From Candidatus Omnitrophota bacterium (GTDB lineage: Bacteria > Omnitrophota > Gorgyraeia > Gygaellales > Profunditerraquicolaceae), in the NCBI GenBank assembly GCA_003598025.1, contig QZKH01000003.1:503221-567220 (forward strand): DNA of 64,000 nucleotides, in the 5' to 3' direction. The translations under genes and the position numbers were made by a program. The notes beneath the pieces are model-generated. The model did not search any database, was not told where the DNA came from, and worked only from the letters and a program-made list of their open reading frames with translations. Positions 28,611-50,731 of the stretch are shown piece by piece; positions within the stretch are counted from its first letter, which is position 1, and every line of letters starts with the position of its first letter.

Positions 28611-28656
28611 TTAATTACCTCTTTTAGCTCAAACGCTATATCTGTCTCCCTTCTCT

Positions 28657-28896: not shown

Positions 28897-28916
28897 TTTA
28901 CTGCCTCCTTTTCTGG

Positions 28917-30183: not shown

Positions 30184-33100
30184 TTACACCATGCCTTCTA
30201 ATTCTTTATTGGCTTTATCTAACTTGTCAAGGTACTGCGTATCAACCTTTGATTTTTCGATAGGCTTAAAGATAAGCTGCTTAATCTTGCCTTCATCATC
30301 CAGCTGGACTTTACCGGTTTCATCGGTCTTGGCAACAATATATTCCTTTAATTCCTTAGGCAGCTGCTCGTAGAATTTCGGCTCTTTGGCAAGACCGGCA
30401 ACAATCAGGCCTAAGCTAGAGAGGGTTTTGGTTTCTTCTCCGCGCTTGACTAAGACATCAACCTTTTTGCCCCAATACCTGATATTATCTTCAAAGATAA
30501 TCCTGATTGAGCCAGCTATTAGATACGGCTCAAGGCTCTTAATAATATAGTCCTGGGGGATATCCGGTATGGTAACTAAGCTCTTAAGCAAATCATCAGT
30601 TAAGCCTAAAATTTTGACAATCTTATCCCTATTCAAAGCTGGATCGATATTGATAAGTCTGACGCGTATGTTCTCTGGAATCTGTTTCTTTTCCTGCGCC
30701 TGATACAATGAAGCAAGCGCTTCTCTAAAGCCAAGTCCTTTTAGCTGAGGCGTGCCTTTTGAGGTATCGATAAGAGTATCGACATCAATTTCTAGCGTCA
30801 TTCCGTCATAACCAATACAAAGCATATTAATAGCCTGAATTGCGCTGTTGCTTAAGACTAAATCATTATTCTCATTAACACTAAACAAGGCTCCAGCGAA
30901 AGGATCAGCCGTCTTTATTTTTAGCTTCTCTGTATTTTCCCTGTTAAATTTATCCTCAAGGACTTTTATGGCATCGCTGACTGCCTGGTTATCCGGTTCT
31001 TTCTCAAAGAGCAGCCTTAAAAACGGCAAGGCTTCAACAGCGCCAAATTTTGCTAAAGCAATGGCTGCATTATTTCTTATTTCCCGACTCGGGCTATATA
31101 AGGAATTGATAAGCTTAGAATCTACTTCTCTTAATAACATGACCAAGTCAGCATCGTTTAGCCTGATTTGCTGTTCTTGCTCAATAGACCTTGCTTTCTT
31201 GCTTGCCCAATCAACCCTGGGAAGATTACCCAGGTTAATAGTAGTGTTGATAGTACGGAATTCTTGCTCAATGCCCGGAGGCAAAGTCACGGAAGTCTTA
31301 AATAATAATCCCATAAACAGCCGTTCCAGCTCCTGATCTGCCGGATGAGAAAGCTTATAGAACGCTGAACCGACCTCATGAACGATAATCCTGAATAAGG
31401 CTACCAAAATCTGCTTATCTCTGTTTTTTATGCCCTGGTTTATCTCTTCAACAGTAACCGGCCTTCCCAATAAATCCTCAAGACAGGACCGCTGAATATA
31501 AAAGGTATTACCGCTAAGAGTCGCACCAAAGGTTGAACGTCCGTTGTCAATAATGTATATATTTAAAGTCCTGAGGTAATCTATCAGTTCGTTAGCGTGG
31601 TTGGGAAATATGCGCGAGAAAAATACTGTGAGTGCAACAAGAAAATCAGGATCCAGCGGCATACCCTTAATTTTTCCCAATTCATAAGATTCTTTTATTT
31701 CTCGTGCCATAGGAGGCGGAAAATCTCCAAACTTAGCCGGAAGATTAGTCGTATCTCTGAACATGTTGTCAAAGAATAATTTTCTTAAGCCCTCTATAAC
31801 ACTGTCTCTTGTATCAGGAAAATCAAGGCTAAAATTATTATTAGGCGCCTGGGGCTTCTTTTCTTGAGGCTTAGGCTGAGGAATAGGTTGAGGCGACGGG
31901 GTAACCGGCTTGGGTCTTTCCAGTTCTGGCTCATAGACCGGCGGTTCTTCTATTATAGGCCTTACTTGTTTTAGTTTTGGCTTATTAAAATCTAAAATCT
32001 CTTCTATTCTTTCATCAAAACGGCTTCCCTTGCCTTTTTCGCTTTTTCCAACAATTTTGATTTCATATTCTTCAGCTAAGCGGGAAACATCCTTAGCCAA
32101 CTGCTCTGTCCACGGGATCCCTTTTCTTGCAGCGAGTTTCTTCGCTCCTAGAAGAATTGCCTCGTGGGCAAGCAGGACTGCGACTTCAAAAGTATAGAGC
32201 TGCTCGTAGGTAAGCTGGTCTATGTAGATTGAATTATTAGAAAGTCCGTTGTGAGCTATCTGATAGGCATTTTCATTGTTTACCAATAAGCCGGGAGGAG
32301 AATTATTGTGCGGTACTATCAAGACAATATTTGCTATCGAAAGTATCTCCGGAATATCAACTCTGCCTAATCTTGGAATTTGCACAGAAGGATATCTTTT
32401 TAACGACGAGATTACCCAGGCAATATCCTGTGCGTATTTTGCGCAGTTATCTTTCCAGCCGGATGCATCGCCCCAGATAAGGCTGCCCCTTCCTTCTCTT
32501 TGCGCTGCTGTAATAACCTCATTGACATCCATGTGTTCATCCGGGCTGAACATACCTTTTCCTTTAGCTGCGCCTGCAAAGTCAGACTTAATTCTATTGG
32601 CAAGCAGGTGTAAAGTTCGTTGCCAGCCATGCTCTCCGCCCTGATCGTAAAACTCTACTTCTTCAGGGATATTATGTTTTGCGCCAACGGAATAAACTTT
32701 TGCCCCGGGGATAATCATCCTGCGGTCTAATCCTGAAGGCCCGAAGTCGTCTCCCACAATAAGGATCTGTCGTGGTTGTATGTCCTGCGGAAGATAATTC
32801 CTGAACATTCCTACTGCCGCAGCTTTATCCACTCCTTTAGAAACTATATGTATAGTCCCTCCTCCAGAGACCAGTATATCTAACTGCCAGCTGCCGGGGA
32901 TTCTGCGTTTAATTCTTTCTATTAATTCTTTTTTCTGATCCGCTGAAGTGCTTTCTTTGATGCCCAGAGTCAATGAAATATCCCTGTTATGAATAAAGGT
33001 AACACCCGGATCCTGGGTTAGAATGGGGCCTAAGACTGGAATATTGCCTTTTGGATTAACCACTTCTTTTATTGCGCTTCTTATGATTTCCTGCAATTCT

Positions 33101-36100
33101 TTTCTGTGCGCCTCTGTATCAAAAGGCGCTCTTCCCATGGTAGCGTCATCCAAAAGCACTGCCTTGAACTGCCCCTGTGTATAGAACTGCCATAGCTGGC
33201 TGCCTTCTGAAGGGCCGATATACAGGCTGCTCAACAGCTCTTCTGAATCTCCTGAGTTCTTAAGCAGGCTGCGCAGCGGTTCTATTAGATATGTTTTTGT
33301 CTCTTCCGTGCTTTGCGCGGTGATAATTGCAATCTTTATTTTTGCCTTTAAGAAACCTCTAAGCTGCTCAAGGATCTCCGGCGGTACAGTGCGCAGGGTG
33401 CGTGAAAGTGTCTTATCCAAATCGAATATCATTGCCTTCGGCAAGCCGGATGTGTTTGGAGCCTTTGGAATAATATCGTCTATCCCGCAGGAATATTTAA
33501 GCATTAAACCAATCCACAAATCTACGTGGTCAATAAGATTTTTTACCTTAACCTTCTCATGGGAATGATTACCCTCGTATGGAGAACGAATATGTAAACC
33601 AGCATTTGCATGATTTGGAAAATGGACAAAGTCACCCATACCTAAACCTTCTCTTGTCAGCTCTATTTTTCTACCTTTACTAACGGCAATTTCCCGAACC
33701 GTATTTATTATGTCACTGTAGGGCTTCTTCTGGCTGTCCTGACCAGACACTACAACAACGAACGAATTATCCGGATCAGGGATTGCATAATCTAACGGAC
33801 CATCGGAAGTCAGCGAGAATAACACATTCTTAAACAACTCAGGATGACTTTCACCCAAGTGTCTCGCTCCTTCAAAAGGCGTTTCTTCTTCAGCAGTAAT
33901 AATGAAAACAATTCTTCTGCGGTCTGCGCCTTTATCCCAATAGTTTGTCTTTATGAATCTTAATGCTTCAAACAACACCGTAAGTCCCGCTTTATCATCT
34001 GCTCCGAAAGAACGATCTTGCTTATGATAAAAACCCTTTATCTGATCAGAAATATTCATATCTTCTGGAGTTGAAGAGGGGATTGTATCCATATGAGCAT
34101 TGATGATAAATCCCGGCTCTTTAGAGAACCTTCCTGTCCCGGGAAATTCTACAACCAGGTTCTTTGGTGTATCCGAGCTGCCGCACTGCGGGCCGCATTC
34201 AAGAACAACTCTTGCACCCATGGCTGTAAGGGCATCTTTTAACTGCTGCCTGATTGCCTCTTCGCTTCCTGTGGGACTTCTCTGACGGATCAGGCTGACA
34301 AAAGTATCTACGCTTTGGCTTCTGGCTTTTTCATGCAAATAGAGTGAACTTACTTCTTTAGAAATTGCCCTTGCCTTGGCTAACAAGGTGTCTGCCACCG
34401 GCTTTATTTCTTCGGCCTTTTTCAGCACTTCTATTTCTTTCTTTAGCTGCGCCTCTTCTTCTTTAAGCTCGGTTATGGTTTCCTGCAAAAGCCCTCTTTG
34501 CACATCTAAACCGCGAAGTACAAGCAAGAGCCTCTCGCGTTCTTCATTAAGCTTGGCTGCAGCAGCATTAATACCGTCTAATTCCTGACGTGCTTTATCC
34601 CTTTCAGCAACAAGACTGTCCAACTCAGCTTTTACCCCTGCTTTTTCCTGTTCAAGCCTTGAGAGCTCGGCTGCATGCTCTTGTTTCTTTCTAGCGAATT
34701 CTTCATCCAGGGCGTTGATCTGGGCTTGGATATCTTGTCTTTGAGCATCAAGCTGTTCCTGCAGCCTCTTCTGTTCTTCGCTTAGAACCTGCTGCTTTTG
34801 CTGCGCCTGAGCTTGAGTGGCTTCTTGTGTTTCTTGAACATGGCGCCTTGCTTCCTCAAGTTCTTGTTGTGTTCTATCAACATTTTCTTTTAACGCTGCC
34901 CTTTGAGCCTCTAAGCCGCGGATTTCTTCCTGAAGATTTTGTTTTTCTTTTCCAAGGCTTAATAATTCCTGCTTTTTGCTTTCTACATCCTGCTGAACTC
35001 CCTTTAAGCCTGTGGTTTCGGCCTTAAGCTTTTCTCTTTCTTCTCTTAAGCTGGTCAGCTCCTGAGTAAGATTTGTTATTTCTTCTTTTATAACTCTTGC
35101 TTTTTCCTCTGCCTCGCTTATAGATAACGACAGTTCTTTTTGTTTAGCCTTAATCTCATTTTGCAGCGCAGTTGTCTGTTGGGAGAGTTCATCTTTCTGT
35201 CGGATTAAACTTTCTATCTGCTGATCTAGCTGTGTTGTTTTAATTTGAGCTGCGCGCTCGGTTTCCTGTCTGGCCAAAGCGTCTTTTTCTGTTTCAAGGC
35301 TAGTAATAGCTTGCGTTAATTCCTGCATTTTTTGATTCAAGGCTGCTATTTCTTTCTGAAGACCATCTTTCCTAGTCTGAAAACTTGCAGCATCTTCTTC
35401 AAGCTGTTTTTTCTGTGCATTAAGAGCAGTTGTTTCTTCTTTTACTTTTCTTAAGTTTTCTTCTGCTTCCTGCAATTGCTTATTTAATGCCTCTATCTGA
35501 GCCTTAGCAGCTGAAGTATCCTGCAGAGCTGTTAACTCCTGGCGTGCTTTTTCTTTCTGCTGCTCCAAGACCTTCAGTTCTTCCTGATAAGCATCAATTT
35601 TTTGCTTTAAGCCCTGGATCGCCTGTTCATAATTAGTTCTTTCTTCTTTGAATCTGGCTGTTGCCTCTTCCTCCTGAGCTGCTGCCAAAGACAAACTCTG
35701 CCTCTTTGCTTCCAAATCTTTCTCAAGCTGGATAATTTCCTGTGTTAGTTTTTCTTTCTGCTGAGTTAATTCTTGAATCTGCTGTCCAGCTTGCGCGGAC
35801 TTCTGGCTTCTTTCTTCTTCAAGCGCAGCAATTGTCTTTTCAAGACCTGCTATTTCTTCTTTAAGACTGGATACCTTTGTCTGTAATTGCGGAATAACTG
35901 CTGCATCCTGCGGCTCAACTGCTACTACATCGTCCGGTTTTTCTCCTGCACCCTCAAGTGCCTCAATAGGAAATGGAGTCTTTGGCAAAGGATAGTCTTG
36001 TTTGTTATATTCAATTTGTCCTTGCAGGACCTCGGGTTTCACTGCGTAAAGCTCAAATCCTTCAGGAGTAGTTTTTGTGCTAAGAAGATTAATGACTTTT

Positions 36101-42100: not shown

Positions 42101-45100
42101 TCTAATACCTCAGGCTTAAGTTCAGAAAGACTCCCAATCCAGAAAACAAATTCTCTTGGATTAATAGCGACATTAGCAATCTTATCTATAGTATTATTAA
42201 GCAAACTAATAGTGGCTGGCTTTGTAAAATTAGCAGTTTTATCTAAATTATCCCAAACAGCAGTTAATCTTTGCTGTTCTTCTGGATTGGTAGTAAATCT
42301 TGCAGATAGTTCACGCCTCTTTACTATGTAGTTCTTGAGTTCTTGGTATCCGGACAAAACCTGTTTTGTTCCTGCAGCCCACGTCTGTGCCTCAAAATTA
42401 ACGCACATAGTAAGCCACCATACAAAGTCATTCTTCCTGTAAGGCTGATTGGCAAGTGTGTCAATGTCCTTTAGAATTTCCAAGATTACATCTTTTATTA
42501 AGCCGGCGCAGCTCGGTCTTTTTTCTTCTAACTTTGCCTTTAAGGAATCAATAATCCTGCCAAGATCATCTTTCTCCTGCTGGTTAGTACAGAGTTTATC
42601 AAGAGCCATTTCTTTGGCTTGCTTAAAACCAGCTAAGTCATTGAAATTATTGATTACCGCTTGAGCTCCTCCACCCCAAACACTAGCATTAAGTCCTATT
42701 AATTCGGTTAACCAATAGATAAATTCTTCTTTTGACCTGCACGTTTTGGTTAATTCCGACAGAATATTCTTAAGTAAATCTGAACTATTGCTATCTTCAA
42801 GCATACCTGGAAGATGGCGAATACTTTTTTGTGAAAGTTGGTTTTTCAGATTATCGATATCTGAGAGGAATTTCTGGCGGCTTGAATCATCCTGGGTAAA
42901 CTTAGCTGCAGCATTTTCTTTTGCTTGCTTAAAGCCAGCTTGAACAATGATTACATTTAGCGCCCCTGCCGGCCCATAGCCATTAACGCCTTTCCAGAAA
43001 TTATCATCGAATGCCTTAAGGAAATTTATATATTCAAAGAATTCTGTTAGGTTACGAGAAACTTCAGTAACCTTAGGAATAATAGTCATAAGTATATAAA
43101 CATCTGCAGTAACACCTCTTCTTTTTAATTCTTGCCGCAAGCTGTCAACTGTCTGGAACAGTTGGGATGTTTCTTGGGAATTATGGCAAAACTTTCCTGA
43201 AGCTTCCTCTTTAGCACGCACATAAGCAATTAGATTCTGTAATAGCCTAAGAAATTCTCCTGAAGACCATGACTGTTTTTCAAACTGCATAACTTCATTT
43301 ATCCAGAATAAAAATTCATCTAAATTGCGTGAGGCTTTGTTAATTTCGGCTAATGCTTTTTTGAGGATGCCGGGATAATTTAATCCGTCTCTTTCCAGTT
43401 TCTGTATAAGGCCGTTTATAGCAGCTCTGGCTCTTGCAGCTGCTTCTTGGTTAGTACCGAACTTATTTAATGATTCCTCTTGAGCACAGTCAAATTCTCT
43501 TAGATCGGTAAAGACTGCTAAAACCTGCCTTTGCCCTTGGTCTAAGATATTCTTAGGCAAACTTACAACTAAAGTTAGCCAATGCCAAAACTCATCCCTA
43601 TTTCTGGATTGCTCAGTGATTTGCGGAAGGATATCTTTAATTAAACCTACAGCATTGTTTGCGCCTTTCTGGGTAAGTTTTTCTTTTTCTCTATCAATAC
43701 CGTCAAAAATAACCTTTTGCTCCTGGGCAGTGGTGGCAAATTTTGTTGCAGCAACGCGCGATACCCTTTTATATTCTCCGATATCTCCGTAAATCCGTGT
43801 CTTCTCGGACTTCCAGTTACCGAATTTGAATAGCCGGGCAATCTTTTCTTCTTGTCCTGCTTCCATCCAAGAGCGAAAGATCTTCTCCAGGTATTCCTTG
43901 GACATGCGCGCGTATACGGGGGCCACGCTGCTTATGTCTCTATCTGAGAGCTCATCCGAAAGCAAGAGATTAACTTTTTGCAGTTTTCGGTAAGTAAGAG
44001 GGAATGTTAAGAAACGGTAGACAGTTTTTACCACACTGGTAACCTTTTCGCTTACCCAAACACCTGCGACACTTAAACCAGCACCCAGAAGTGGAGCAAC
44101 TACTATTTCCCCAATCCAAACTACATATCCTAAGGTTGCTGGCTTGTCAGACGTACCTAGCTCCCAATGATGACCGTAGGGAACGTAATATAGGAATATA
44201 CCTCCTAAGATCCAAGCAACCACGGCGCCTAACCAGGCAACCGCAGTCAAATTGTCGTCATAAGAAAGCTGCCCTATCCAGCCACGTTCTTTCTCAATCT
44301 TTAAGGATTCGCTTAATGTCTTAGCATATTCTAGGTCCTGCGGTCTTTGAGATTTAGAGATGTTTCCTGTTTGCTGCAGAATTGCATTTAATTCTTCCGT
44401 AACTGAAGAGTCTGGCTTTATTTCCTGGGCACGCTGGAATGCCCTTACCGCTTCTAACAACTGTCCCTTCTTATGCAAGGATCTGCCTAAGTTAGCCAAA
44501 ACTATCTGGTCATTTGCATCAAGCTCGAGTGAACGCTTATAGCTTTCAATGGCTTTTACATCATCGCCCTTTTCAACATAAACCACACCTAAATTATTAT
44601 AGGTGGTGCTGTTATTTGGCGTTATTTCCAGGGATTTTCTGTAAGATGTTATAGCGTCATCAAAGCGCCTCTTCTTTCTTTGGCATTCAGCTAAAAGATT
44701 GTAATCAACCGCGTTCTTGGAGTTTAGTTTTATGGCCTGATTAATTAAACTTATAGCCTCATCAATATTGCCTTTCTTAAACTCTGAATTTGCTCTCCAA
44801 TACAACCTTTCATGGGAAATCCCTTTGCCAACTTTGCCGCCAAGAATTCCGCTGACAATTGAAACCGGCCAGGCGATAAGCAGGGTTGCCAGGATCGGCC
44901 AGTCTGCCTCTTTAGGATTGGTAAAGACCTCCTGAATCTTTGGGGTCAAATTAACAAAGTAGGCATAATAGCCTGCAACTAATGAACCAACGGCCGCGGT
45001 CATACCCAAGGTTTTACCGGCCGTTGTGTTAAACCATTTGTTGAGAATTTTCTTGGTAATATAAAGAGGGGGACCGAATAATACCGTAAATACTGCAACC

Positions 45101-48100
45101 ACTCCTATGGAAAGCGGATCCAAGGCGTATAAGGTTGTTCCACCGGTCTCACCTAATTCCCTGCGCAATGAGTTAATCTGTTCTTCGTATCTTGCTTTCT
45201 CCTGCTCAAGACGGCCAAGCTTTTCTTTAACTTTCCTAAGTTTTGAAGTTAAACCGTCTACTGCCGGCTGCAAGGCTTCGATAACAATCCTATCGTTCTG
45301 TCTTTTTGCCTCTTCCAGGCCCTCACTTAATTCCCTAAGATCGGTTTGAACCTTAGCAATTGTTCCTTCCTGTTCTCTGAATTTAACCAAGAATTGGTTA
45401 TAATCATCAGTCAAGGCCTTAAGCCTTGCCCTCTTGCTTTCTGCTTCTCCCATATTAGGAGCGGGCAGCGCTCTTGCTTGCGGTGCCGGAGGCAGTTCAG
45501 AGATGCTTTCTTCTTCTGTAACGACAACCTGACCCTCTATGACATCTTCCGGCAAGTTCCTGGCTAATTCTGCCTGGATTTCTCTTCTTACATCGCCTTC
45601 GGTTACTTCTATATCTTGAGAGGCTTTTTTTGCCAGATATAAAAGCACGCGCCTGGCTATTTCAGGATTTAGGTATAATGATTTGTTTAGGGCAACTTTG
45701 GAATATCCGGTCATCATCTCAGGGAATGCCGGTATCTGCGACATACGGCGTTCTATAGTATTTATCCATTCCTGTACTAAAGGATCATTCTCAATTTGAG
45801 GATTATTGGTAAGAATCCACTTTAAATAACGAGGCAATCGCCCATATCTTTCGTTTATCTCTTCGCTAACATAAAGAGTCTGTTCTTCCGTACTTGGAGC
45901 ATGAAAGCGGATCATGTGCTGAATTTGATTTTCAATAATACGCTGGAATTCTCTTTCCAGTTCTGCTATATAGCCATCCGTTAAGAGCCGGTAAAGCGCC
46001 TCATCAGAAAGTCCTTCGTATTGATCCAGCGCTTGCTCGGTAACCCTATCTCGGGCATTGTCAATAGCCCGTTCAAAATCACGCAAAACTTTTTCATCCG
46101 TGCCATCCATCATCCGCTGCATATTTTCTAATATATGGATTACCTTATCTCTATCTGAGGTATCCTGATTAAGCATGGATAGGGGCATGGGTAAAGGCAG
46201 TTCACCAGGACCCACAGGCCTAAAGCTCCTGGCTAAAGCGTCCTTTGAGCCTTGAGCAATGGAACCGCTTAACTGCTGGATGCGGTTTTCTAACTCTTGG
46301 CGCATGGTAACGGGCAAATTATGATTCGGCTGTATACCTTGAGGGTTGCTGATTATGCTTGCCACCGGCCTTGCAACTTGAGGCCTGCTGAAAGTTGTTA
46401 CTATGGTAGGCTCAATTACAACCGGAGCCACTTCCTGAACAGGAGTCTTTCCCTTCGAAGAAATCTTCTTAATGATGCGATAGGCAAAATATCCAATTGT
46501 GCCTGCTATCGCTAAGAAAATAGTCACGCCATGGGTAAATACATCGCTAAATGAGGCGAATATCTTAGAAGACGCAGAATTATCTTGGCCTAAAGCTGTT
46601 GTAGAAAAATACAAACTTAGCGTAAAAACACTTATCGCTGTTAAGAAAGGCCGTAAATTTATCTTAATCTTGGGTATCGCAAAGCGAGGGATACTAGCTT
46701 TAATTTCAGGCTTTGCTTTTATTGCAGCGGGCTTTTCTTGCGCCGCAGGCGCAGAAAAAGTTACTGTTGGCTCCTGTTTGCCTCCTGCTATTCTCTGTTC
46801 TATGAACTTTGCTTCCTTGGCTTTTGGTTTTAAAGATGCAGCAAAGCTTGCGAATTTCTCTAACAGCGTTCCGGAATTTCCGGCTGCCTTTGGCTTAATC
46901 TCTGCTCCAGTGAGCACCGCGTTAAAAGCTTCTGCAATATCGATTCCCTGGGCTAAGAATCTTAAAAACTTCCAGGAATTTTCTTTATTATTTGTTTTTA
47001 CAGACAGCCCATAGGCTACGCAGCCTATAACTTTGCCGTATTTGTAATTCTCAAGACCTGACTTGTATTCAGCCATCAAGTCAGCTATCCCCGGCGTATC
47101 CTGCGGCCTTGCGCCTGATTTTAAAGCTGCTGCCAGTTCTTCCGCTTTATCCGCGGTGTCCTTTGCGTTGGCAGCAAGGAATTGTTCAGGATTAGTTTGC
47201 AGTTCAAGTAGCCTTAGGAAACCAACTGCGCTAGCAAGATAAGCGCCTTCACCGTCATTTATATATCTGCCGTAGCTTCTAAGGTAATGAGTGGTTTCGT
47301 GTGCGATTATTTCTTTAAGATAATCATCTGAAAGATGTTCTCTTAAGGCGACAACTATCTTTTTATATTCCGGTTCAACGGAACCGCCGTGCTGATAATC
47401 CAATGTTTGAGAGTGATATAAAGATTTGCTTGAGAAATGGTTTAGAAGCTTGCCGCCCACAGCGTAAAACAATAACGGGCCAAAGGTGCCAAGCTGGATA
47501 AATACTTTCGCTACAGATGGATCGAATGCTCCGGTAAAGAAATACCATACCACCATTTCTAATAAGCAGGCAAATCCGAAGAACGCAGGGATACCTGACA
47601 AGGCAAGCAGCATATTTCTATTTGCTGTTTTGACCCAGCCGCGTATCTCTTCCTGTGTGTATTTTCTGAAAGGAATGGTATTACTGACTATCTCATCAAC
47701 CTTATGCTGCGAGATCTCCGGGACCATCCTTCTAGAAACATAGGAAACCTCTTCTTTAATCATATTCCTTTGAGCGGCACTAAACTCAAAAGATACTATT
47801 TTGTTCTCGCTTCCTTTATCAAACGAAGAGGCAGCTAAAGGCGAATAAAGATAGAGCGCTACAGCAACTATCCCTGTGGAAATATTCTTGATATTTACTA
47901 CGCTCTTTATCTTCCCTGTCATAGATAATATAAGCTGAGCAAATCTCTCAACCAAACCAGGGCCTTGCTGGATAGTCGGGGCTTGTTTTATAGGATTCTC
48001 CTGCTTTGGTATAGTGGCAGGTACTGTTTCTTCTAGCTGGACAGGTTTATTAATAGGCGAGATTTCCTCTAAGGCGAGGCTTACTGCTTTCTGATCTTCC

Positions 48101-49809
48101 TCAGATAACTGTAATCTATCTAACTGCGTCTGGAGCTCTTTAACCGAATAATATCTGGATGCCCTGGCAATCCAGTAATTCACCAAGAGTCTCCGAGCTT
48201 CCGGATCAGAAATACTGTTTATAATCTGCAAGGTATCAGGATCATTTAAGATATCCTGAAGCGGGAGCCTCTTATCCTTAAGAAGGGCAAAGTAGGTATT
48301 TTCCTTCTCCTGGCTTGATTTGATGCTAGGCGCAACCACAACATAAGAGATATCTTTTTCTTTTAGGATTGAAGTGAGGCCTTGGGTATGGAAACCACCG
48401 GCAACTATAATGACTGAATTTGAGCTGTAATCGCGGTTTAGACGGTTTAAAGAATTGCTGACTATGGCATTATCCCTGTCGTGGGCAAGACTGTAGAATT
48501 TGTCTAATGAGGCTATCTCGCTGTCCCCGGGAAGTGAATTTACGGCAGAGGAATTTGTATATCTTCTTAAAAGACTAGCTATGGCCTTAGAATTAAAAAC
48601 CTCACGGTTACCTTTAAAGTATTCATAATCCTTAGGCGATAAGTTTATATTTGAAAGCCCTTTTATGATCCTGATTATTGAAGAAAGTTGCTCTATATCC
48701 CTTTCTGCTGAGGTAGCAGTAAGCTTATCTTTTACTGCTTCAGCGAAAGCATCAATTTCTTCAAAGACCTTGGAATTATCCAGGTTCTCAGAAACGGATA
48801 AATACTTAATATAGGTAAAGAGATTATTATAGGTGCTTACCGGAATACCTGCTTCTTTGGTTAGTTTCTCAAGGTAGGAATAATATTCAACCGGTGTGAC
48901 TTTATTTGCCTTAAAATCAAGGCTGTTTTTAACCAGCTCTTCAAGGTCTTGCTTGGAAAGCGCCTTAGTGAGTGAATCAATTAAATCCTGGCGCTCGGCT
49001 TCAGCTTTATCAAAGTTAATTTTATGCTCAAGTTCTTGGAGATTAATGATTCGGGAAAGATTAGGAAATTTTGATAAATCAACGTTTTGTATTATAGACG
49101 CTATATTAAGGTAAGAGATATATTCCTCTAAAGAGATTCTCCCCAGCCTGAAATCTTCAGTTCTGCCGGTAAATTCCCTCAAGTCCTTGGAGTAATATTT
49201 ATTTTTTAAGGTATCAATTACATCCTCAACTACCTTTAACGACCGGCCGAGCGAATCTGAAAAACTCTGGTTCTCCTTAAAGGTGTTTAAGTGGCTGGCG
49301 TAAAGCTCTCTATCCTCTGCGCCGAATACCTTCGGCGGTTCATTCTCGGTAATTAAAAGATAGTCTGTCCCTGAAATAAAGGATTTGGAGAGGAAATATT
49401 TGGCGATTTTTTCCCTTACCTTTTTGTCTTTAGGGAAAGACCTGAAAAAATCAGCGTCAAAATCCCCAAAACCGCCTTCAACTGAAACTAGATTAATTTT
49501 GTATTTGTCTTTTAGGTATTTTACGAGGCTTGCTTCATTAGTCTGCGCTTCCACATTTGCGTGGGCATCCTGGATATGGATAACCAGCTTATGCGGATTG
49601 TATTTTGAGGTATAGGATTCTTTGATTACACCGAGCTCTTGGGGGATTTCAACGGAAGGAGAATCTTGCGAGGCGCGCTTGTTCTTGTTGCTGAAGACCT
49701 CTCCTGCGCCTGCCCAGGTTAGGTCATAAGAAAAGAATGTAACTATCAAGACAATACAAATTGTCCTGATAAATATTCTTAATTTAGTATGCTTCTGCCA
49801 GTCCAACAT
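30184..49809 (-). CDS. Giant multidomain surface/membrane protein (6,541 aa)
   Basis: Single uninterrupted 19.6-kb ORF. N-terminal signal/TM and several TM clusters; HETTH (HExxH) motif; TPR block; about 65-aa internal repeats (SRNxxEFxxW); duplicated about 150-aa domain; tandem about 40-aa repeats; about 900 aa of coiled coil; M20/M28/M42-like zinc peptidase motifs (AHMD, DDKAG, TAEEET); HAD motifs (FDLDKTL, VGDD); Pro-rich linker. The plus-strand ORFs inside it are antisense artefacts. Confidence 0.85.
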   Translation of the reverse strand: MLDWQKHTKLRIFIRTICIVLIVTFFSYDLTWAGAGEVFSNKNKRASQDSPSVEIPQELGVIKESYTSKYNPHKLVIHIQDAHANVEAQTNEASLVKYLKDKYKINLVSVEGGFGDFDADFFRSFPKDKKVREKIAKYFLSKSFISGTDYLLITENEPPKVFGAEDRELYASHLNTFKENQSFSDSLGRSLKVVEDVIDTLKNKYYSKDLREFTGRTEDFRLGRISLEEYISYLNIASIIQNVDLSKFPNLSRIINLQELEHKINFDKAEAERQDLIDSLTKALSKQDLEELVKNSLDFKANKVTPVEYYSYLEKLTKEAGIPVSTYNNLFTYIKYLSVSENLDNSKVFEEIDAFAEAVKDKLTATSAERDIEQLSSIIRIIKGLSNINLSPKDYEYFKGNREVFNSKAIASLLRRYTNSSAVNSLPGDSEIASLDKFYSLAHDRDNAIVSNSLNRLNRDYSSNSVIIVAGGFHTQGLTSILKEKDISYVVVAPSIKSSQEKENTYFALLKDKRLPLQDILNDPDTLQIINSISDPEARRLLVNYWIARASRYYSVKELQTQLDRLQLSEEDQKAVSLALEEISPINKPVQLEETVPATIPKQENPIKQAPTIQQGPGLVERFAQLILSMTGKIKSVVNIKNISTGIVAVALYLYSPLAASSFDKGSENKIVSFEFSAAQRNMIKEEVSYVSRRMVPEISQHKVDEIVSNTIPFRKYTQEEIRGWVKTANRNMLLALSGIPAFFGFACLLEMVVWYFFTGAFDPSVAKVFIQLGTFGPLLFYAVGGKLLNHFSSKSLYHSQTLDYQHGGSVEPEYKKIVVALREHLSDDYLKEIIAHETTHYLRSYGRYINDGEGAYLASAVGFLRLLELQTNPEQFLAANAKDTADKAEELAAALKSGARPQDTPGIADLMAEYKSGLENYKYGKVIGCVAYGLSVKTNNKENSWKFLRFLAQGIDIAEAFNAVLTGAEIKPKAAGNSGTLLEKFASFAASLKPKAKEAKFIEQRIAGGKQEPTVTFSAPAAQEKPAAIKAKPEIKASIPRFAIPKIKINLRPFLTAISVFTLSLYFSTTALGQDNSASSKIFASFSDVFTHGVTIFLAIAGTIGYFAYRIIKKISSKGKTPVQEVAPVVIEPTIVTTFSRPQVARPVASIISNPQGIQPNHNLPVTMRQELENRIQQLSGSIAQGSKDALARSFRPVGPGELPLPMPLSMLNQDTSDRDKVIHILENMQRMMDGTDEKVLRDFERAIDNARDRVTEQALDQYEGLSDEALYRLLTDGYIAELEREFQRIIENQIQHMIRFHAPSTEEQTLYVSEEINERYGRLPRYLKWILTNNPQIENDPLVQEWINTIERRMSQIPAFPEMMTGYSKVALNKSLYLNPEIARRVLLYLAKKASQDIEVTEGDVRREIQAELARNLPEDVIEGQVVVTEEESISELPPAPQARALPAPNMGEAESKRARLKALTDDYNQFLVKFREQEGTIAKVQTDLRELSEGLEEAKRQNDRIVIEALQPAVDGLTSKLRKVKEKLGRLEQEKARYEEQINSLRRELGETGGTTLYALDPLSIGVVAVFTVLFGPPLYITKKILNKWFNTTAGKTLGMTAAVGSLVAGYYAYFVNLTPKIQEVFTNPKEADWPILATLLIAWPVSIVSGILGGKVGKGISHERLYWRANSEFKKGNIDEAISLINQAIKLNSKNAVDYNLLAECQRKKRRFDDAITSYRKSLEITPNNSTTYNNLGVVYVEKGDDVKAIESYKRSLELDANDQIVLANLGRSLHKKGQLLEAVRAFQRAQEIKPDSSVTEELNAILQQTGNISKSQRPQDLEYAKTLSESLKIEKERGWIGQLSYDDNLTAVAWLGAVVAWILGGIFLYYVPYGHHWELGTSDKPATLGYVVWIGEIVVAPLLGAGLSVAGVWVSEKVTSVVKTVYRFLTFPLTYRKLQKVNLLLSDELSDRDISSVAPVYARMSKEYLEKIFRSWMEAGQEEKIARLFKFGNWKSEKTRIYGDIGEYKRVSRVAATKFATTAQEQKVIFDGIDREKEKLTQKGANNAVGLIKDILPQITEQSRNRDEFWHWLTLVVSLPKNILDQGQRQVLAVFTDLREFDCAQEESLNKFGTNQEAAARARAAINGLIQKLERDGLNYPGILKKALAEINKASRNLDEFLFWINEVMQFEKQSWSSGEFLRLLQNLIAYVRAKEEASGKFCHNSQETSQLFQTVDSLRQELKRRGVTADVYILMTIIPKVTEVSRNLTEFFEYINFLKAFDDNFWKGVNGYGPAGALNVIIVQAGFKQAKENAAAKFTQDDSSRQKFLSDIDNLKNQLSQKSIRHLPGMLEDSNSSDLLKNILSELTKTCRSKEEFIYWLTELIGLNASVWGGGAQAVINNFNDLAGFKQAKEMALDKLCTNQQEKDDLGRIIDSLKAKLEEKRPSCAGLIKDVILEILKDIDTLANQPYRKNDFVWWLTMCVNFEAQTWAAGTKQVLSGYQELKNYIVKRRELSARFTTNPEEQQRLTAVWDNLDKTANFTKPATISLLNNTIDKIANVAINPREFVFWIGSLSELKPEVLEVFCRDIATTFDYYKSKGKDRDFNHLPAVLNQYYKAYRQLVLITPDLLDILTDSSIDTDKRVEKAYQYIVGQKIVKLGAPSNLAGLRDAVSFDELIRAVGGEDTIRSFIQEFSPVRKAMEKMGRDGVYSYAESQKPAYYRRFLDEATGLKPGFNQPGEKFRVSCIGEIVKWSREEEAQVMPISDTVQALRQLIQYLRMEWPNLYDNFIEPKRELIKGRPLEEFVTSDTVSKMAQQLLGKVQNWQQFSEQQRAVFTLKIMEILAFSETAELRAQINSATDDFNKLRTVVQYWQRVRELILKNKWLQEKSKFYSSVSKFIEQKKSTINNKLDEKGKQILQFHLSGGTLADFFKGFVSQDCTKNTDGDYPHFLDTQAFVMDPACFLFKVIEENRWVGNIYTFAFKDKNGKFYLFLDMFQLNESHLLVTNGEGKEEIRKEFAARFVREFMNYLGSQGFDYLLISSDPAQRGIKDALRKAAREKSGQNETAVFKLKKLGGTEFFSEAGVSEEFVQTINGNSISNDFQDVSGYRIELDKTTPQVIQQRQKDLDYLEKLLGEMSSEETRLASLSKERREELTQLNRRGQEAANSGKNAVALALKEASDQKTAEAQKIEYELGELRMKIREKKDELGHIGVELGLGTGRGSSPALGVRLASFIPLGIFSSLLFANKAQAQDFSSGDWLYNPLTPLVFVAGVAGFIGLVCYIFYKLFPHKPDRDSYYETEYLPRPVLQEYKLPEDLRTQLAQVLSKISAESSELVPKNIDIRIPFEVGISRNQAVKALGLLYSSLIKHGSIIDFFKDKSFYHNFKQRAKELSLTDDFDQPQNKSYFFSVPKEKIRYEEDRRAEEFIGQYLNRIRRTQIGTADELLERIHQERSRLLRKELYKGATPTDLYTYYQLLLSYVSLQSKAKLDEVNDLLSEKNYLGALSVLEEFFRIDIGGETISLEENASLKDALNRVLQKEIEDIRWQFNRCTSFQANKQQVIREAKDIQFELRLSERTADDILRGVASGDCTSINGSAFYNTIPQFMFDPGLLVFRVIQDDKWVGNVYTIVGEKDSEPVLIVDAIQLPVWGRSWPVSVKEISDKVLEKVVEYASSQGFSQVLMSSFISNFNAIHDHFDQKYPATAQEIEKTTGFEHLKALGLWDNYAARNEYLETFSPHWNYSLKRVDPNNPRQTLLLRNIWQRNTPKETQEIQPVDSGEGTVLEKPAPAQENNPVSSPVQANSQPVKKNTPKQGHSFRNFCTGFLLAAALLLSSGCATAFNSRIGPLTIHSRTEVALSQPKPHEASLSVSGNIELGEKAKKQETAKTPEVKKAPKGVELRSQGNMRVGPLTGDISPKVGLSDVPQEEAPISLSAKASLGEKVKQNKSDTEGVELATEAKVRLGPATAQVNPKVGLSDVPEGQKPLDLSGKVSVEETGKDAVSQEKAPAREEAKPKPAQVDQAQDNAPDTQQIITQISEQIKSIQAELDKIRQTDSNLKIEVSDLKAQLAGAQKQLQQLKETQKLPEEVTQLQEKKADYERQIATLEAQQQQAQEELNRILAEKEKAAQEVKHLQSQPPRIQQKIDNLQGEVRQLETQKKQGEQNLTQLQSQKSVLENNVNQLTQDKDKLQQNLSGLRQQISEAKTVLDEAKIKSEPTLKNIWISLPWQGKLGIILLGLTGIGILAGGIILWRRWSRFKNLSDRVKGLQQQADDLERQLSSQRKEKEDLAAEIEQKKTQAADLEAGSKKQEDELKKITDELGRLREEHQRVQDELVQAKEVKNNIIEELDARIVELKSQVSQKEQESATLSSQAETITTTPRPETQTVKISDADIDKSVEFLKALPSKEMQRLLRSEKINVKDRIRFLHDELGLDIVNGHGRSLLLRNPDTLRNQKAFLEGLGLPLTVTNLASSKRGFAKKELTQIIKHPEWQELTSEEKLSVVSHLYDIYGLRISWLLRDNDWYQLLHTFNLPGEPINYTPRSIDFIQRYEWARFQKFHNVTQTKYRLSKIKEVITILDLKVINLLSTKTTPEGFELYAVKPEVLQGQIEYNKQDYPLPKTPFPIEALEGAGEKPDDVVAVEPQDAAVIPQLQTKVSSLKEEIAGLEKTIAALEEERSQKSAQAGQQIQELTQQKEKLTQEIIQLEKDLEAKRQSLSLAAAQEEEATARFKEERTNYEQAIQGLKQKIDAYQEELKVLEQQKEKARQELTALQDTSAAKAQIEALNKQLQEAEENLRKVKEETTALNAQKKQLEEDAASFQTRKDGLQKEIAALNQKMQELTQAITSLETEKDALARQETERAAQIKTTQLDQQIESLIRQKDELSQQTTALQNEIKAKQKELSLSISEAEEKARVIKEEITNLTQELTSLREEREKLKAETTGLKGVQQDVESKKQELLSLGKEKQNLQEEIRGLEAQRAALKENVDRTQQELEEARRHVQETQEATQAQAQQKQQVLSEEQKRLQEQLDAQRQDIQAQINALDEEFARKKQEHAAELSRLEQEKAGVKAELDSLVAERDKARQELDGINAAAAKLNEERERLLLVLRGLDVQRGLLQETITELKEEEAQLKKEIEVLKKAEEIKPVADTLLAKARAISKEVSSLYLHEKARSQSVDTFVSLIRQRSPTGSEEAIRQQLKDALTAMGARVVLECGPQCGSSDTPKNLVVEFPGTGRFSKEPGFIINAHMDTIPSSTPEDMNISDQIKGFYHKQDRSFGADDKAGLTVLFEALRFIKTNYWDKGADRRRIVFIITAEEETPFEGARHLGESHPELFKNVLFSLTSDGPLDYAIPDPDNSFVVVVSGQDSQKKPYSDIINTVREIAVSKGRKIELTREGLGMGDFVHFPNHANAGLHIRSPYEGNHSHEKVKVKNLIDHVDLWIGLMLKYSCGIDDIIPKAPNTSGLPKAMIFDLDKTLSRTLRTVPPEILEQLRGFLKAKIKIAIITAQSTEETKTYLIEPLRSLLKNSGDSEELLSSLYIGPSEGSQLWQFYTQGQFKAVLLDDATMGRAPFDTEAHRKELQEIIRSAIKEVVNPKGNIPVLGPILTQDPGVTFIHNRDISLTLGIKESTSADQKKELIERIKRRIPGSWQLDILVSGGGTIHIVSKGVDKAAAVGMFRNYLPQDIQPRQILIVGDDFGPSGLDRRMIIPGAKVYSVGAKHNIPEEVEFYDQGGEHGWQRTLHLLANRIKSDFAGAAKGKGMFSPDEHMDVNEVITAAQREGRGSLIWGDASGWKDNCAKYAQDIAWVISSLKRYPSVQIPRLGRVDIPEILSIANIVLIVPHNNSPPGLLVNNENAYQIAHNGLSNNSIYIDQLTYEQLYTFEVAVLLAHEAILLGAKKLAARKGIPWTEQLAKDVSRLAEEYEIKIVGKSEKGKGSRFDERIEEILDFNKPKLKQVRPIIEEPPVYEPELERPKPVTPSPQPIPQPKPQEKKPQAPNNNFSLDFPDTRDSVIEGLRKLFFDNMFRDTTNLPAKFGDFPPPMAREIKESYELGKIKGMPLDPDFLVALTVFFSRIFPNHANELIDYLRTLNIYIIDNGRSTFGATLSGNTFYIQRSCLEDLLGRPVTVEEINQGIKNRDKQILVALFRIIVHEVGSAFYKLSHPADQELERLFMGLLFKTSVTLPPGIEQEFRTINTTINLGNLPRVDWASKKARSIEQEQQIRLNDADLVMLLREVDSKLINSLYSPSREIRNNAAIALAKFGAVEALPFLRLLFEKEPDNQAVSDAIKVLEDKFNRENTEKLKIKTADPFAGALFSVNENNDLVLSNSAIQAINMLCIGYDGMTLEIDVDTLIDTSKGTPQLKGLGFREALASLYQAQEKKQIPENIRVRLINIDPALNRDKIVKILGLTDDLLKSLVTIPDIPQDYIIKSLEPYLIAGSIRIIFEDNIRYWGKKVDVLVKRGEETKTLSSLGLIVAGLAKEPKFYEQLPKELKEYIVAKTDETGKVQLDDEGKIKQLIFKPIEKSKVDTQYLDKLDKANKELEGMV

Positions 49810-50011: not shown

Positions 50012-50731
50012 CTATGTTTCTTTCTTCGCAAGCGAAGATAATTTTTGCACTATATCAACAAGCCGCTCTTTATGTTTTAAGACCGCTTTTAAGATATCCG
50101 TTGTTTCGGCGAGGCGTTCTTTCTCACTCTTCTTTTTATTTAGGCCTTCCTCTTCATCAAGTGTGTAGAGTTCGCATTTATTGATGATATCGCTTGAAAT
50201 ATTTGAGAGATCATGAGCAAGGCGCCTTAAAGAAGTATCTTCTCCCGGCTCCTTAGACATTATTACTTCGAATTTGACTGCCTTTGGATAACTGCGCTCT
50301 AATACTTTTTTAATAAGAACTTCCAGCGTATGAATATCTACCGGCTTATGTACAAAATCTACTATACCTAAATCAGCTATATCCTGCATTTCTTGTTCAG
50401 ACAGGACTGCGCCTGTGACCATGGCTACTTTTGTGTCTTTATCGGTTTCACGCAAGATTCGTAAGACATCCTTACCCTCTAGGTTGCCCTCAAGCTTCAT
50501 GTCCAAAATAACCAAATCGGGTTTATTCTCTTTAATTAATCTAAGCGCTTCCTCTCCGGTACTCGCGGCAGAAACCGTAAAGTTACGCCGCGAAAAATGA
50601 TTAACCAAAGACTCGCGTATATCAACTTCATCATCCACAACTAATAATTTTGGCTTTTCTTCCATCTCGCCTTTTATTATACTGCATTTTCTCATAATTG
50701 GAACTGATTTTGACTTTAAGTCCATGGGCAA
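50012..50731 (-). CDS. Receiver domain protein with C-terminal helical region containing a HisKA-like H-box (RRLAHDLSNISSDI)
   Basis: Receiver motifs (LLVVDDEVDIRESL, ILDMKLEGNLEGKDVL); the likely true start is MEEKPK at about 50665. The C-terminal region carries AHDLSN, resembling a phosphotransfer H-box, but no ATPase domain. Confidence 0.65.
   Translation of the reverse strand: MPMDLKSKSVPIMRKCSIIKGEMEEKPKLLVVDDEVDIRESLVNHFSRRNFTVSAASTGEEALRLIKENKPDLVILDMKLEGNLEGKDVLRILRETDKDTKVAMVTGAVLSEQEMQDIADLGIVDFVHKPVDIHTLEVLIKKVLERSYPKAVKFEVIMSKEPGEDTSLRRLAHDLSNISSDIINKCELYTLDEEEGLNKKKSEKERLAETTDILKAVLKHKERLVDIVQKLSSLAKKET

Follow-up and report, generated by a model that had tools for sequence, protein, structure and literature searches.

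A 6,541-residue modular protein of Omnitrophota with a predicted TIKI-like head domain

The 64,000-nucleotide stretch of contig QZKH01000003.1 analyzed here (the window) comes from a Candidatus Omnitrophota bacterium (assembly GCA_003598025.1) and contains a giant gene at 30184..49809 on the reverse strand (-). The 19.6-kb frame is a real, intact, and selected Omnitrophota gene. Its product of 6,541 amino acids (aa) belongs, according to homology searches, to a family of modular proteins with ~3,400-7,600 residues that is conserved in Omnitrophota. The family is characterized by an N-terminal helix followed by a TIKI-like head domain of ~500 residues, one to three copies of a new Asp-Cys (DC) domain, long coiled coils, and a HEAT repeat with a C-terminal tail, and several members contain an M20/M28 peptidase-like domain. 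The giant has in addition a TPR block, six helical repeats of ~95 residues, a HAD-like domain, an HExxH module, and 13-15 membrane helices, most of them paired.

Integrity of the Reading Frame

The gene is a single open reading frame (ORF) from ATG to stop that covers 30.7% of the window, and its conceptual translation contains one stop, at the end only. The ORF listing and the translation bear out an earlier description made from the DNA letters without database searches (the sequence-only reading), which had reported an uninterrupted 6,541-aa gene filling about 30% of the window. With the base composition of the ORF itself, a stop is expected by chance about once in 15 codons, and the log10 probability of finding none in 6,541 codons is -191. 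The five other frames of the same DNA contain 228-596 stops each. The ATG start is backed by three homologues (P0001-P0003), all of which open with the same MLxWxxH... sequence, and the position of the stop by a C-terminal motif that is kept in distant homologues. An exact look-up of the 421-aa protein encoded downstream showed that an identical 6,541-aa product has already been called in GenBank, on contig JAGUZT010000008.1 of the metagenome-assembled genome (MAG) GCA_020060685.1, which is an Omnitrophota genome as judged by homologues.

The genome that contains the window was itself assembled from a metagenome, and a long frame from such a source could be an assembly chimera, a product of collapsed repeats, or a decaying pseudogene left open by luck. 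The sequence-only reading had named a chimera of collapsed repeats as a concern. Repeat searches of the ORF DNA found no tandem or long direct nucleotide repeats able to collapse in assembly. Tandem Repeats Finder reported only one 57-nt array, and dispersed direct repeats are at most 40-49 nt long, with 61-73% identity, so that at the nucleotide level there is nothing for such a collapse to act on.

One close relative, JBEKSD010000011.1 (L001), from the MAG "Candidatus Omnitrophota bacterium SPRUCE_526", was detected when species-representative genomes were scanned. It is colinear with all 6,541 residues of the giant, with identities of 88% (aa 1-2413), 66% (aa 2438-5456), and 81% (aa 5452-6541), and it has ~305 extra residues inserted between the peptidase and HAD modules. 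The ratio of nonsynonymous to synonymous substitution rates (dN/dS), calculated by the Nei-Gojobori method, is 0.02-0.15 in each 250-aa window with estimable dS. The whole frame is therefore under purifying selection as a protein.

In L001 the gene consists of two ORFs of 2,408 and 4,403 aa that are joined by an ATGA stop/start overlap, and this break speaks for an artifact or a pseudogene. The split is caused by a 46-nt deletion at giant aa 2414-2428, within one of the ~95-aa repeats (L001 8560-8660, equivalent to window ~42526-42570). Three metagenome fragments, P0072, P0073, and P0074, cross the deletion site in frame, which makes the uninterrupted state the common one, and purifying selection is seen on both sides of the break, across the whole alignment. 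Altogether, the metagenome fragments P0069-P0075 are colinear with the giant over stretches of 700-2,700 aa, and a distant homologue of 6,509 aa (P0077) was recovered in the same assembled form on three contigs, which come from at least two samples. Against the metagenomic source and the L001 break stand the improbability of a chance-open frame, the low dN/dS throughout, the lack of repeats, the independent MAG that is colinear over the full length, the fragments that pass the break in frame, and the reproducible assembly of the distant homologue. On this sequence evidence, the chimera and pseudogene explanations are effectively excluded, and we regard an artifact as extremely improbable. If the L001 deletion is real, the two halves can be made separately, and this bears on whether covalent continuity of the chain matters.

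Family Members and Exchange of Modules

Six long DC-domain proteins match the parts of the giant in the same order, with 22-55% identity. These are P0077 (6,509 aa), P0078 (5,012 aa), P0079 (4,873 aa), P0083 (3,365 aa), P0092 (3,701 aa), and P0098 (7,557 aa); the named long DC-domain members are Omnitrophota. The head is matched in P0077, P0078, and P0092, together with a DC domain and the tail, and the M20/M28 domain is matched in P0079 and P0083. Other parts matched among the six are the module at aa 1160-1580, the repeats, aa 2520-3400, the DC domains, and the coiled coil. The last 200-310 residues are matched in all six. Even the extreme C terminus (30187-30210, aa 6534-6541) is conserved in homologues of 22-29% identity, as ...N(K/R)xLxx(M/S)(V/A)-COOH, which suggests that this end may be a functional terminal signal or contact.

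One of these proteins has a close counterpart with a database name. UniRef A0A2H0LSX1 (PIQ87533.1), a "Peptidase M28 domain-containing protein" of 3,373 aa from Candidatus Abzuiibacterium crystallinum, belongs to the same 90%-identity cluster as P0083. Through P0083 it shares with the giant, in the same order, the module at aa 1201-1364, the repeats, the DC domains (45%), the M20/M28 domain, and the tail, but it is half as long, and its identity to the giant is 22-45%. For P0083, BLAST gave no match at E ≤ 1e-8 to the head of the giant (aa 36-545), and Pfam at E ≤ 1e-5 detected neither a TPR nor a HAD domain.

Relatives of the giant join the same modules in different ways. P0001, which is 78% identical in the head, runs on from there into a radical SAM domain. 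In P0002 (69%) the head is directly followed by the equivalent of aa 3744-4801, and in P0003 (54%) by that of aa 1167-1635 and then the repeats. P0072 has the end of an FBP aldolase/phosphatase ahead of its TPR block, and P0070 skips aa 4287-4797. Other domains that are found in more distant proteins with the head are NTP-transferase, Fic, iPGM, LMW phosphatase, PGM/PMM, M48, class I aldolase, and AceK. In word-index searches the C-terminal part (aa 5130-6541) matched only one close fragment and the middle part (aa 2600-3790) only three.

The divergence from L001 is also uneven. Synonymous divergence (dS) is 0.14-0.55 over aa 500-2250 and >1 or saturated elsewhere, with extremes of 0.14 at aa 751-1000 and >2.5 at aa 251-500 and in several later windows, a spread of ~20-fold. 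The M20/M28 region has only ~42% identity to L001. The dS spread and the low identity of the peptidase point to recent recombination of segments between lineages. Because relatives join modules differently and dS varies while M20/M28 is so dissimilar, the comparisons indicate that the modules are semi-independent units that have probably been reshuffled by recombination among relatives. The combination of conserved ends with a variable middle indicates that chains of this family evolve by module exchange.

Structure Prediction for the Head Domain

The first 1,100 residues of the giant match 68 protein clusters, and the segment common to all of them is aa 45-525. The head is N-terminal in 67 of the 68. 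Named clusters come almost entirely from Candidatus Omnitrophica/Omnitrophota; Elusimicrobiota, Endomicrobia, and the "PVC group" contribute a few. This agrees with the sequence-only reading, which had pointed to the Omnitrophota, a phylum in which giant genes are documented. The domain extends over aa 36-545 (48175..49704; these and the following features of the giant are all on the (-) strand) and includes a helical insert of ~290 residues. It is preceded by a hydrophobic anchor helix at aa 12-30 (49720..49776; Kyte-Doolittle value 1.99), and a comparable helix lies ahead of the head in 48 of the 68 family members.

The head was modeled with AlphaFold2 from a 62-sequence alignment, with a mean predicted local distance difference test (pLDDT) score of 89.9 and a predicted template modeling score of 0.83. 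The model has an alpha/beta fold with a parallel beta-sheet core, as is found in the TIKI superfamily. Residues Gln-80, His-83 (in HIQDAH), Glu-111, Gly-163, Glu-165, Arg-445, Gly-471, Gly-472, and His-474 (in GGFHT) are invariant in the alignment, and Asp-81 is nearly so, being conserved in at least 90% of the sequences. In the model Asp-81, His-83, Glu-111, Glu-165, Arg-445, and His-474 are each situated just past a beta-strand. Active TIKI enzymes contain a "2His/2Glu" motif, E-x-H...E...H, in which the first His is followed by the Glu after 28 residues both in Bcr135 (H85/E113) and in RRSP (H3902/E3930) (PMC6254334). The sequence of the head contains an equivalent of this motif in D81-x-H83, E111 (28 residues after H83), and H474, where Asp replaces the first Glu. 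The modeled fold and the motif thus mark the head as TIKI-like. It is probably an active hydrolase of this superfamily, an esterase or a peptidase, an activity that we infer from the model and the conserved residues.

The TIKI superfamily includes ChaN, RRSP, HopBA1, and the Ere/Bcr135 group (PMC6254334), and a Tiki/TraB family is also spoken of (PMC12329661). The head differs from these proteins in several respects. It matches no Pfam family of the superfamily (Tiki, TraB/PrgY, ChaN, the erythromycin esterases EreB/EreC/Bcr135, RRSP of MARTX toxins, and HopBA1), its first acidic residue is Asp rather than Glu, and its core is split by the ~290-aa insert. In the giant family, moreover, the domain sits N-terminally behind a hydrophobic helix and is fused to a very long and variable C-terminal cargo. 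No match to aa 1-1000 was found in Pfam or NCBIfam, the superfamily's own families TraB, Cofac_haem_bdg, and Erythro_esteras included, and a Foldseek search of the whole head model against the Protein Data Bank (PDB) gave nothing significant. Because of the insert, the Foldseek result, and the lack of a superfamily Pfam match, we conclude that the head is a very divergent, previously undescribed branch of the TIKI superfamily. Literature searches for TIKI/TraB in Omnitrophota, and for the accessions of the assembly and the contig, found nothing relevant, and the texts of the two reports on Omnitrophota giants (West-Roberts et al. 2023 and Nielsen & Lui 2026; see below) make no mention of a TIKI-like head. 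The domain, now placed in a hydrolase superfamily with testable catalytic residues, is common to at least 68 protein clusters with differing enzymes.

Membrane Topology and Mode of Action

Hydropathy analysis gives 15 candidate helices, several of which are paired at a distance of 10-30 residues, so that the multidomain membrane protein with transmembrane clusters of the sequence-only reading is confirmed at this level. After the anchor helix follow a cluster of up to three helices at aa 643-661 (weak), 736-754, and 766-784 (47458..47883), a hairpin at aa 1055-1113 (46471..46647), a cluster of two or three helices at aa 1566-1657 (44839..45114), and a pair at aa 1854-1872 and 1902-1920 (44050..44250). 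The first hairpin, as seen by hydropathy and sequence inspection, consists of a signal-peptide-like helix that ends in ALG/QD (aa 1073), a 20-aa loop, and a second helix followed by KK..K.K. A second hairpin, at aa 3216-3274 (39988..40164), similarly opens with a signal-peptide-like helix, to AQA/QD (aa 3240), and has a short loop and a strong second helix; both signal-like helices have a small-x-small end. A further helix, aa 3810-3828, ends in a lipobox-like LSSGC, and the stretch between it and the helix at aa 4222-4240 (37090..38382) is predicted from hydropathy and charge to be a periplasmic loop. Within this loop are the 63-aa repeats (aa 3845-3985) together with a coiled coil of ~200 aa, and the equivalent of the loop in P0002 lies directly behind the head.

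From aa 1658 on, the K/R-rich flanks of every helix are mutually consistent under the positive-inside rule. The charge bias over this part puts the TPR block, the repeats, the two DC domains, and the last 2,300 aa (coiled coil, M20/M28, HAD, and tail) inside and only aa 3829-4221 outside. The side on which the first 1,650 residues lie is less straightforward. Of the family members, 33 of 68 have no further helix after the head in the available sequence, and in P0001, P0036, and P0057/59 the head adjoins radical SAM, PGM/PMM, and FBP aldolase/phosphatase domains with no helix between. Such domains need cytoplasmic cofactors and substrates. For these two reasons, the lack of a later helix in many members and the contiguity of the head with cytoplasmic-type enzymes in relatives, a cytoplasmic head is favored.

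Taking these results as a whole, the explanation that we find best, although we hold it with no more than middling confidence, is that the selected gene encodes, as a member of a modular family, a hydrolase and scaffold chain that is stapled to the inner membrane and faces the cytoplasm. The helix pairs would act as staples that hold the chain to the inner membrane, and nearly all soluble modules, that is, the hydrolases and the TPR, HEAT, and repeat scaffolds, would be on the cytoplasmic side. A single loop of ~390 residues, with the lipobox-like Cys, the beta-rich repeats, and the ~200-residue coiled coil, would reach the periplasm. The role of such a protein would be that of a membrane-tethered multi-hydrolase and interaction scaffold rather than of an outward-facing adhesin, and neighboring two-component and cyclic di-GMP (c-di-GMP) genes might regulate it. 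Its modules would be reshuffled by recombination, and in L001 the chain would be cut into two translationally coupled ORFs.

Several observations weigh against this explanation. When all 15 helices are taken as spanning, parity in the first 1,650 aa clashes with the charge bias. The clash is lifted if the weakest segments, aa 643-661 and 1601-1619, are non-spanning, in which case the rest of this region would be cytoplasmic and the N-terminal helix an N-out anchor. That helix has K/R on both flanks (three and three), and if it were oriented N-in, as is usual, the head would lie outside. The L001 deletion may be an assembly or sequencing error, and ~60% of the chain is without a match to any curated family or assigned fold. 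Published TMHMM/DeepTMHMM runs on other Omnitrophota giants put most domains outside; the authors deem some of these placements implausible, and the predicted topologies of such proteins are described as unreliable (West-Roberts et al. 2023, bioRxiv 10.1101/2023.11.21.568195).

The published runs would agree with the suspicion of the sequence-only reading that the giant is a surface protein for attachment or predation. Here the signal-like N terminus would export the head, and most modules would lie outside, where they bind or digest the envelopes of prey or host, a role that has been proposed for giants of the Archaeovorin and Dockerin types. Omnitrophota giants are tied to episymbiosis and predation, the N-terminal helix looks like a signal anchor and has an A-x-A-like TWA/G site, three modules are peptidase-like, and peptidoglycan-active genes occur elsewhere in the window, at 7.5-11.8 kb. 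Searches with Pfam and NCBIfam, in contrast, found no adhesin, lectin, dockerin, TSP3, beta-helix, carbohydrate-active enzyme (CAZyme), SecA_DEAD, or C39 domain in the protein. Of the 34 other ORFs in the window with 150 aa or more, 30 were searched with Pfam, and no genes for type II secretion, pili, or CAZymes were found. The charge bias puts the enzyme modules inside, and PepT-like M20 and Cof-type HAD enzymes are typically cytoplasmic. In relatives, moreover, the head runs directly into radical SAM, PGM, and FBPase domains. The surface role is not upheld, and we consider it quite unlikely. The label of surface or predation protein should accordingly not pass to every long Omnitrophota protein, since here the sequence evidence favors enzymes that face the cytoplasm.

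The signal-like internal helices may be read in another way, as sites where one precursor is cut into membrane and soluble proteins. Such a polyprotein overlaps with the stapled, cytoplasm-facing chain and is not exclusive of it. The cutters could be the giant's own TIKI-like head, HExxH, and M20/M28 modules and/or signal peptidases I and II acting at ALG/QD (aa 1073), AQA/QD (aa 3240), and LSSG/C (aa 3825). Three internal helices do have signal-peptidase-type or lipobox-like ends with K/R on each N-terminal flank, although the lipobox departs from the consensus. The closest relative has two ORFs with purifying selection on both sides of the break, modules are found in other combinations elsewhere, and DC domains exist as stand-alone proteins of 400-520 aa. 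The same idea has been raised for the N-terminal C39/S8 peptidase domains of Omnitrophota giants (West-Roberts et al. 2023). On the other side, M20/M28 enzymes are exopeptidases and not processing endopeptidases, and a linker that might have served for cutting is not family-wide. We regard processing of this kind as unlikely, if less so than export to the surface.

This linker, G-(P/S)-G-(L/T)-L-(V/L)-E-(R/K)-F-A...S-(M/L)-(T/K)-(G/P)-K, occurs at two module boundaries, 47905-47964 (aa 616-635) and 46807-46872 (aa 980-1001), and again twice in P0001. In the form G-P-x-L-x-E-(R/K)-F...KPK it was considered as a family-wide processing site and was rejected, being present only in the giant and P0001.

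A bolder proposal is that the TIKI-like head is the hallmark of a class of membrane-anchored "carrier" polyproteins that has not been described before and extends through the phylum. The enzyme cargo would be interchangeable, and the conserved N-terminal hydrolase, whose catalytic residues are invariant in 62 sequences, would process, activate, or regulate the cargo behind it. The cargo in relatives comprises radical SAM, Fic, AceK, iPGM, PGM/PMM, FBP aldolase/phosphatase, class I aldolase, NTP-transferase, M48, and M20/M28 domains. We consider this quite unlikely. If it were true, the giant genes of Omnitrophota would be recombining module arrays with a logic comparable to that of MARTX toxins, and the 6.5-kaa family, which includes a natural two-ORF variant, would offer a tractable system for studying how such chains are inserted, cut, and used.

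Enzyme-like and Scaffold Modules

The modules were assigned by Pfam searches with eight overlapping 1,000-aa pieces at E ≤ 0.1 and with ten "dark" segments at E ≤ 5, supplemented by NCBIfam and PDB searches. The TPR, coiled-coil, M28/M20, and HEAT assignments were obtained in this way. The dark segments gave nothing credible with Pfam at E ≤ 5, and NCBIfam added only the PepT-like and Cof hints.

The peptidase-like domain at aa 5165-5445 (33475..34317) scores above the Pfam cut-offs both for M28 (41.9 bits, cut-off 21.3) and for M20 (36.7 bits, cut-off 24.6), in agreement with the M20-like peptidase of the sequence-only reading. It also matches an NCBIfam PepT-like family (E 4e-16) and PDB entry 3rza (E 8e-11). 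The set of two-zinc ligands and the catalytic Glu are present in AHMDT, GADDKAG, AEEET, LTSDG, and GNHSHE, which align with PepT-type chains. In the Peptidase T/M20B tripeptidases (PDB 3rza, 3gb0) the corresponding motifs are HxD, GADDKAG, EE, D, and H. The domain, predicted to be a clan MH catalytic domain, lacks the M20 lid/dimerization region in its usual size, with ~75 aa between the Asp and the last His compared with ~190 in 3gb0, and unlike Peptidase T it sits behind ~500 aa of coiled coil in a giant chain.

The HAD-IIB (Cof-type) phosphatase-like domain at aa 5455-5745 (32575..33447) is less certain. Motifs I-IV are intact, as FDLDKT (aa 5462), ITAQS, SKGVDK (aa 5657), and GDDFGPSGLD (aa 5686), and the 75%-identical fragment P0069 has been named a HAD hydrolase by JGI. 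The scores, however, are under the profile cut-offs (Hydrolase_3, 15.4-16.8 bits against 20.9; Cof, 18.8 bits against 137, E 9e-4), and this counts against the hydrolase content proposed above. The HAD-like domain of the sequence-only reading therefore stands on its motifs and the name of P0069 and falls short of the Pfam cut-off.

The HExxH module (46648..47457) contains the sole HExxH of the protein, H837-E-T-T-H841, with GEGAY 15 residues on. The pattern is gluzincin-like, and the module is possibly an MA-clan zinc peptidase. Its only homologue in this segment is ~96% identical, and no Pfam match is found even at E ≤ 5, a further point against a multi-hydrolase. The HExxH of the sequence-only reading is thus confirmed as a single motif, with no family behind it.

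The two DC domains were recognized by self-comparison and profile searches. Copy 1 occupies aa 2896-3100 (40510..41124), with S-Q-D-C-T at aa 2924, and copy 2 occupies aa 3549-3760 (38530..39165), with S-G-D-C-T at aa 3577; the duplicated core is aa 2907-3030 and 3560-3674. When copy 2 was used as the query of an exhaustive HMMER search, 1.84 billion proteins yielded 60 representatives. The invariant residues are G, S, D-C, and G. Proteins of 400-520 aa (P0085-P0091, P0094, P0096) carry the domain C-terminally and have no Pfam match, and these could be the free-living form of the module. Structure prediction of individual segments, which the sequence-only reading had proposed, succeeded for the head but not for the DC domain, whose AlphaFold2 model from a 5-sequence alignment has a pLDDT of 45. 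As a GNAT acyltransferase the DC domain is a weak lead, the best PDB match of a 20-sequence profile being RimI with a non-significant E of 0.17.

The remaining modules are largely helical or repetitive. The block of four TPRs at aa ~1660-1810 (44380..44832), with the repeats themselves at aa 1665-1800, is recognized by Pfam TPR_1 (E 1.8e-26) and matches consensus TPR and OGT structures in the PDB. Six divergent repeats of ~95-100 aa (aa 2009-2590; 42040..43785) match each other by self-BLAST with E values down to 2e-22; they belong to no known family and are common to P0003, P0072, P0075, and P0077-P0081. In all, self-comparison found three internal repeat families, where the sequence-only reading had described several. 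The very long coiled coil that it described is also present, with long stretches at aa ~4010-4215, 4245-4370, and 4640-5135, matches of the SMC and myosin-tail type in Pfam and NCBIfam, a total of >1,000 aa, and an E+K+Q content of 31-35%. Shorter stretches lie near aa 1450-1555 and 3100-3210. The coiled coils at aa 4245-4370 and 4640-5135 (SMC_prok_B, E 1e-26; 35% E+K+Q) surround a domain at aa 4375-4625 without an assignment (34405..37077).

Some of the remaining modules recur in relatives. A helical module with a coiled-coil end at aa 1114-1565 (45115..46470), not assigned to a family, comes straight after the head in P0003 too. Two further modules without an assignment, aa 5746-5945 and 5996-6230 (31120..32574), are separated by a Pro-rich linker and are 47-58% kept in P0073, P0074, P0108, and P0120. 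The chain ends with a HEAT repeat (aa 6233-6284) and the conserved C-terminal tail domain (30187..31119), which were recognized by Pfam and the family alignment; a profile of this tail matched the PDB in the HEAT part alone. No paralogues of the giant were found within the 64-kb window.

Relation to Published Giant Proteins

Giant genes of Omnitrophota have been documented by West-Roberts et al. (2023) and by Nielsen & Lui (2026; bioRxiv 10.64898/2026.06.07.730766). The published proteins reach 85,804 and 147,155 aa, and 5,761 of them have at least 10,000 aa; in an architecture catalogue of 916 proteins, 94% have helices or signal peptides. Catalogue thresholds are 10,000 aa (Nielsen & Lui) and 30,000 aa (West-Roberts et al.). 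With 6,541 aa the present protein is under both. The sequence-only reading was right to assign it to a giant-gene class known in Omnitrophota, but at this length it is not exceptional for the phylum.

The giant is like the long multi-enzyme proteins of Omnitrophota in its phylum, in a helix density of ~1 per 400-500 aa, and in its large unannotated stretches. It shares with them the mixture of peptidase and HAD enzymes with TPR/HEAT scaffolds, divergent repeats without nucleotide tandems, and the presence of mobile/defense genes and a PilZ gene nearby. It differs from the catalogued proteins in having no SecA_DEAD, C39, S8, dockerin, TSP3, glycosyltransferase, or glycoside hydrolase domain, and the type II secretion/pilus flank reported for the largest giants was not found in this window.

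Three described types can be compared directly. Archaeovorins (West-Roberts et al. 2023) are longer than 30,000 aa, a length that the giant does not approach, and their SecA_DEAD/SecA preprotein-binding and N-terminal C39/S8 domains were not found in it by Pfam at E ≤ 0.1. Neither were glycosyltransferase, methyltransferase, glycoside hydrolase, or NUDIX domains, so that of the enzyme content only the peptidases are shared. The many transmembrane helices of Archaeovorins do have a counterpart in the 13-15 hydrophobic segments of the giant. The dockerin/TSP3 repeats of Dockerin-type giants (PF00404, PF18884) have no match. The class 1 "multi-enzyme metabolic cluster" of Nielsen & Lui requires at least 10,000 aa, which is more than is present here, but its membrane-anchored tiling of enzyme families with HEAT/TPR, none of them dominant, is what is seen in the giant (M20/M28, HAD-like, and TIKI-like). 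The giant resembles this class and lacks the features that define the Archaeovorin and Dockerin types.

MARTX toxins offer a functional analogy only. They too are proteins of several thousand residues in which the ends are conserved and enzyme modules recombine in a central array, and one effector, RRSP, has a TIKI fold. In contrast to MARTX, RTX glycine-rich repeats, a C80 protease, and type I secretion genes are not among the Pfam matches of the giant or its neighbors. The giant has many internal membrane helices, and its modules look metabolic or housekeeping rather than toxic.

The documented Omnitrophota giants of 10-147 kaa are functionally opaque and too large for experiments, and the present locus is a mid-sized, alignable member. 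The present analysis adds to the earlier work a fold for the head domain, a family of 3.4-7.6 kaa that is recognized by its head and tail, evidence that modules are exchanged, a split variant, and sequence evidence for inward-facing enzymes.

Flanking Genes

The probable operon partners of the giant are situated downstream at 28158..30182 (-), judged by their adjacency and by a terminator at the end. A gene for a 421-aa secreted protein (28917-30182, -) begins 1 nt past the stop of the giant, which leaves no room for a promoter between them; its product has no Pfam or PDB match. Two shorter genes come next, one (28657-28896, -) encoding a 79-aa membrane protein and the other (28239-28610, -) a 123-aa receiver protein, and a terminator with a 12-bp stem at 28158-28187 closes the operon. 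At locus L002, genes of 422 and 79 aa likewise follow a fragment of the giant gene, and a Phage_rep_O/MerR cluster lies downstream of that fragment.

Upstream of the giant is a 239-aa response-regulator gene (50012..50731, -), and the same 239-aa ORF precedes the gene in L001. A terminator-like hairpin at 49974-50004 separates the two genes in the window. The region 50012-60139 contains receiver genes of 239, 154, 294, and 294 aa, a HisKA_7TM-GAF histidine kinase gene, and a PilZ-methyltransferase gene (58784-60139), the last two lying 7-10 kb upstream of the giant. The P0077 locus (L004 1-3222, 28648-29298) is flanked by receiver genes and by a kinase whose architecture is the same (24% identity over 650 aa). 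A HisKA_7TM kinase is found within 8 kb of both giants. The 79-aa and 123-aa neighbors showed no BLAST homology to the P0077 neighbors; similarity is confined to the HisKA_7TM kinase and to generic receiver domains.

About 1.2 kb beyond the operon terminator there is a c-di-GMP-I riboswitch at 26857-26950 (+) (Rfam RF01051, 71 bits, E 6.5e-12). It is located 60 nt upstream of a gene for a 200-aa response regulator with receiver and Fis-type HTH domains (27011-27613, +).

A mobile/defense island adjoins the operon at 16392-26400, where the GC content falls to 0.34 at 18-20 kb. It contains an OLD-family AAA_15-TOPRIM nuclease with a PD-(D/E)XK partner, a large serine recombinase of 625 aa, and a Phage_rep_O-like ORF. 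Also present, opposite a TaqI-like restriction enzyme, is a fusion of a LexA-S24 peptidase with an N6/N4 DNA methylase.

A series of cell-envelope genes at 7505-11808 (-) encodes an OmpA-family protein, a polysaccharide deacetylase, a class A beta-lactamase-like protein, a protein with two PG_binding_1 domains, and a LysM-Amidase_2 protein. At 12548-12597 (-) is an nhaA-I RNA (Rfam RF03057, 53 bits, E 1e-7), which belongs to a sodium-responsive riboswitch class; no ORF of 150 aa or more was recognized as its target gene. At the other end of the window, an IS30-like transposase gene (HTH_38 and rve) is found at 60533-61627 (-).

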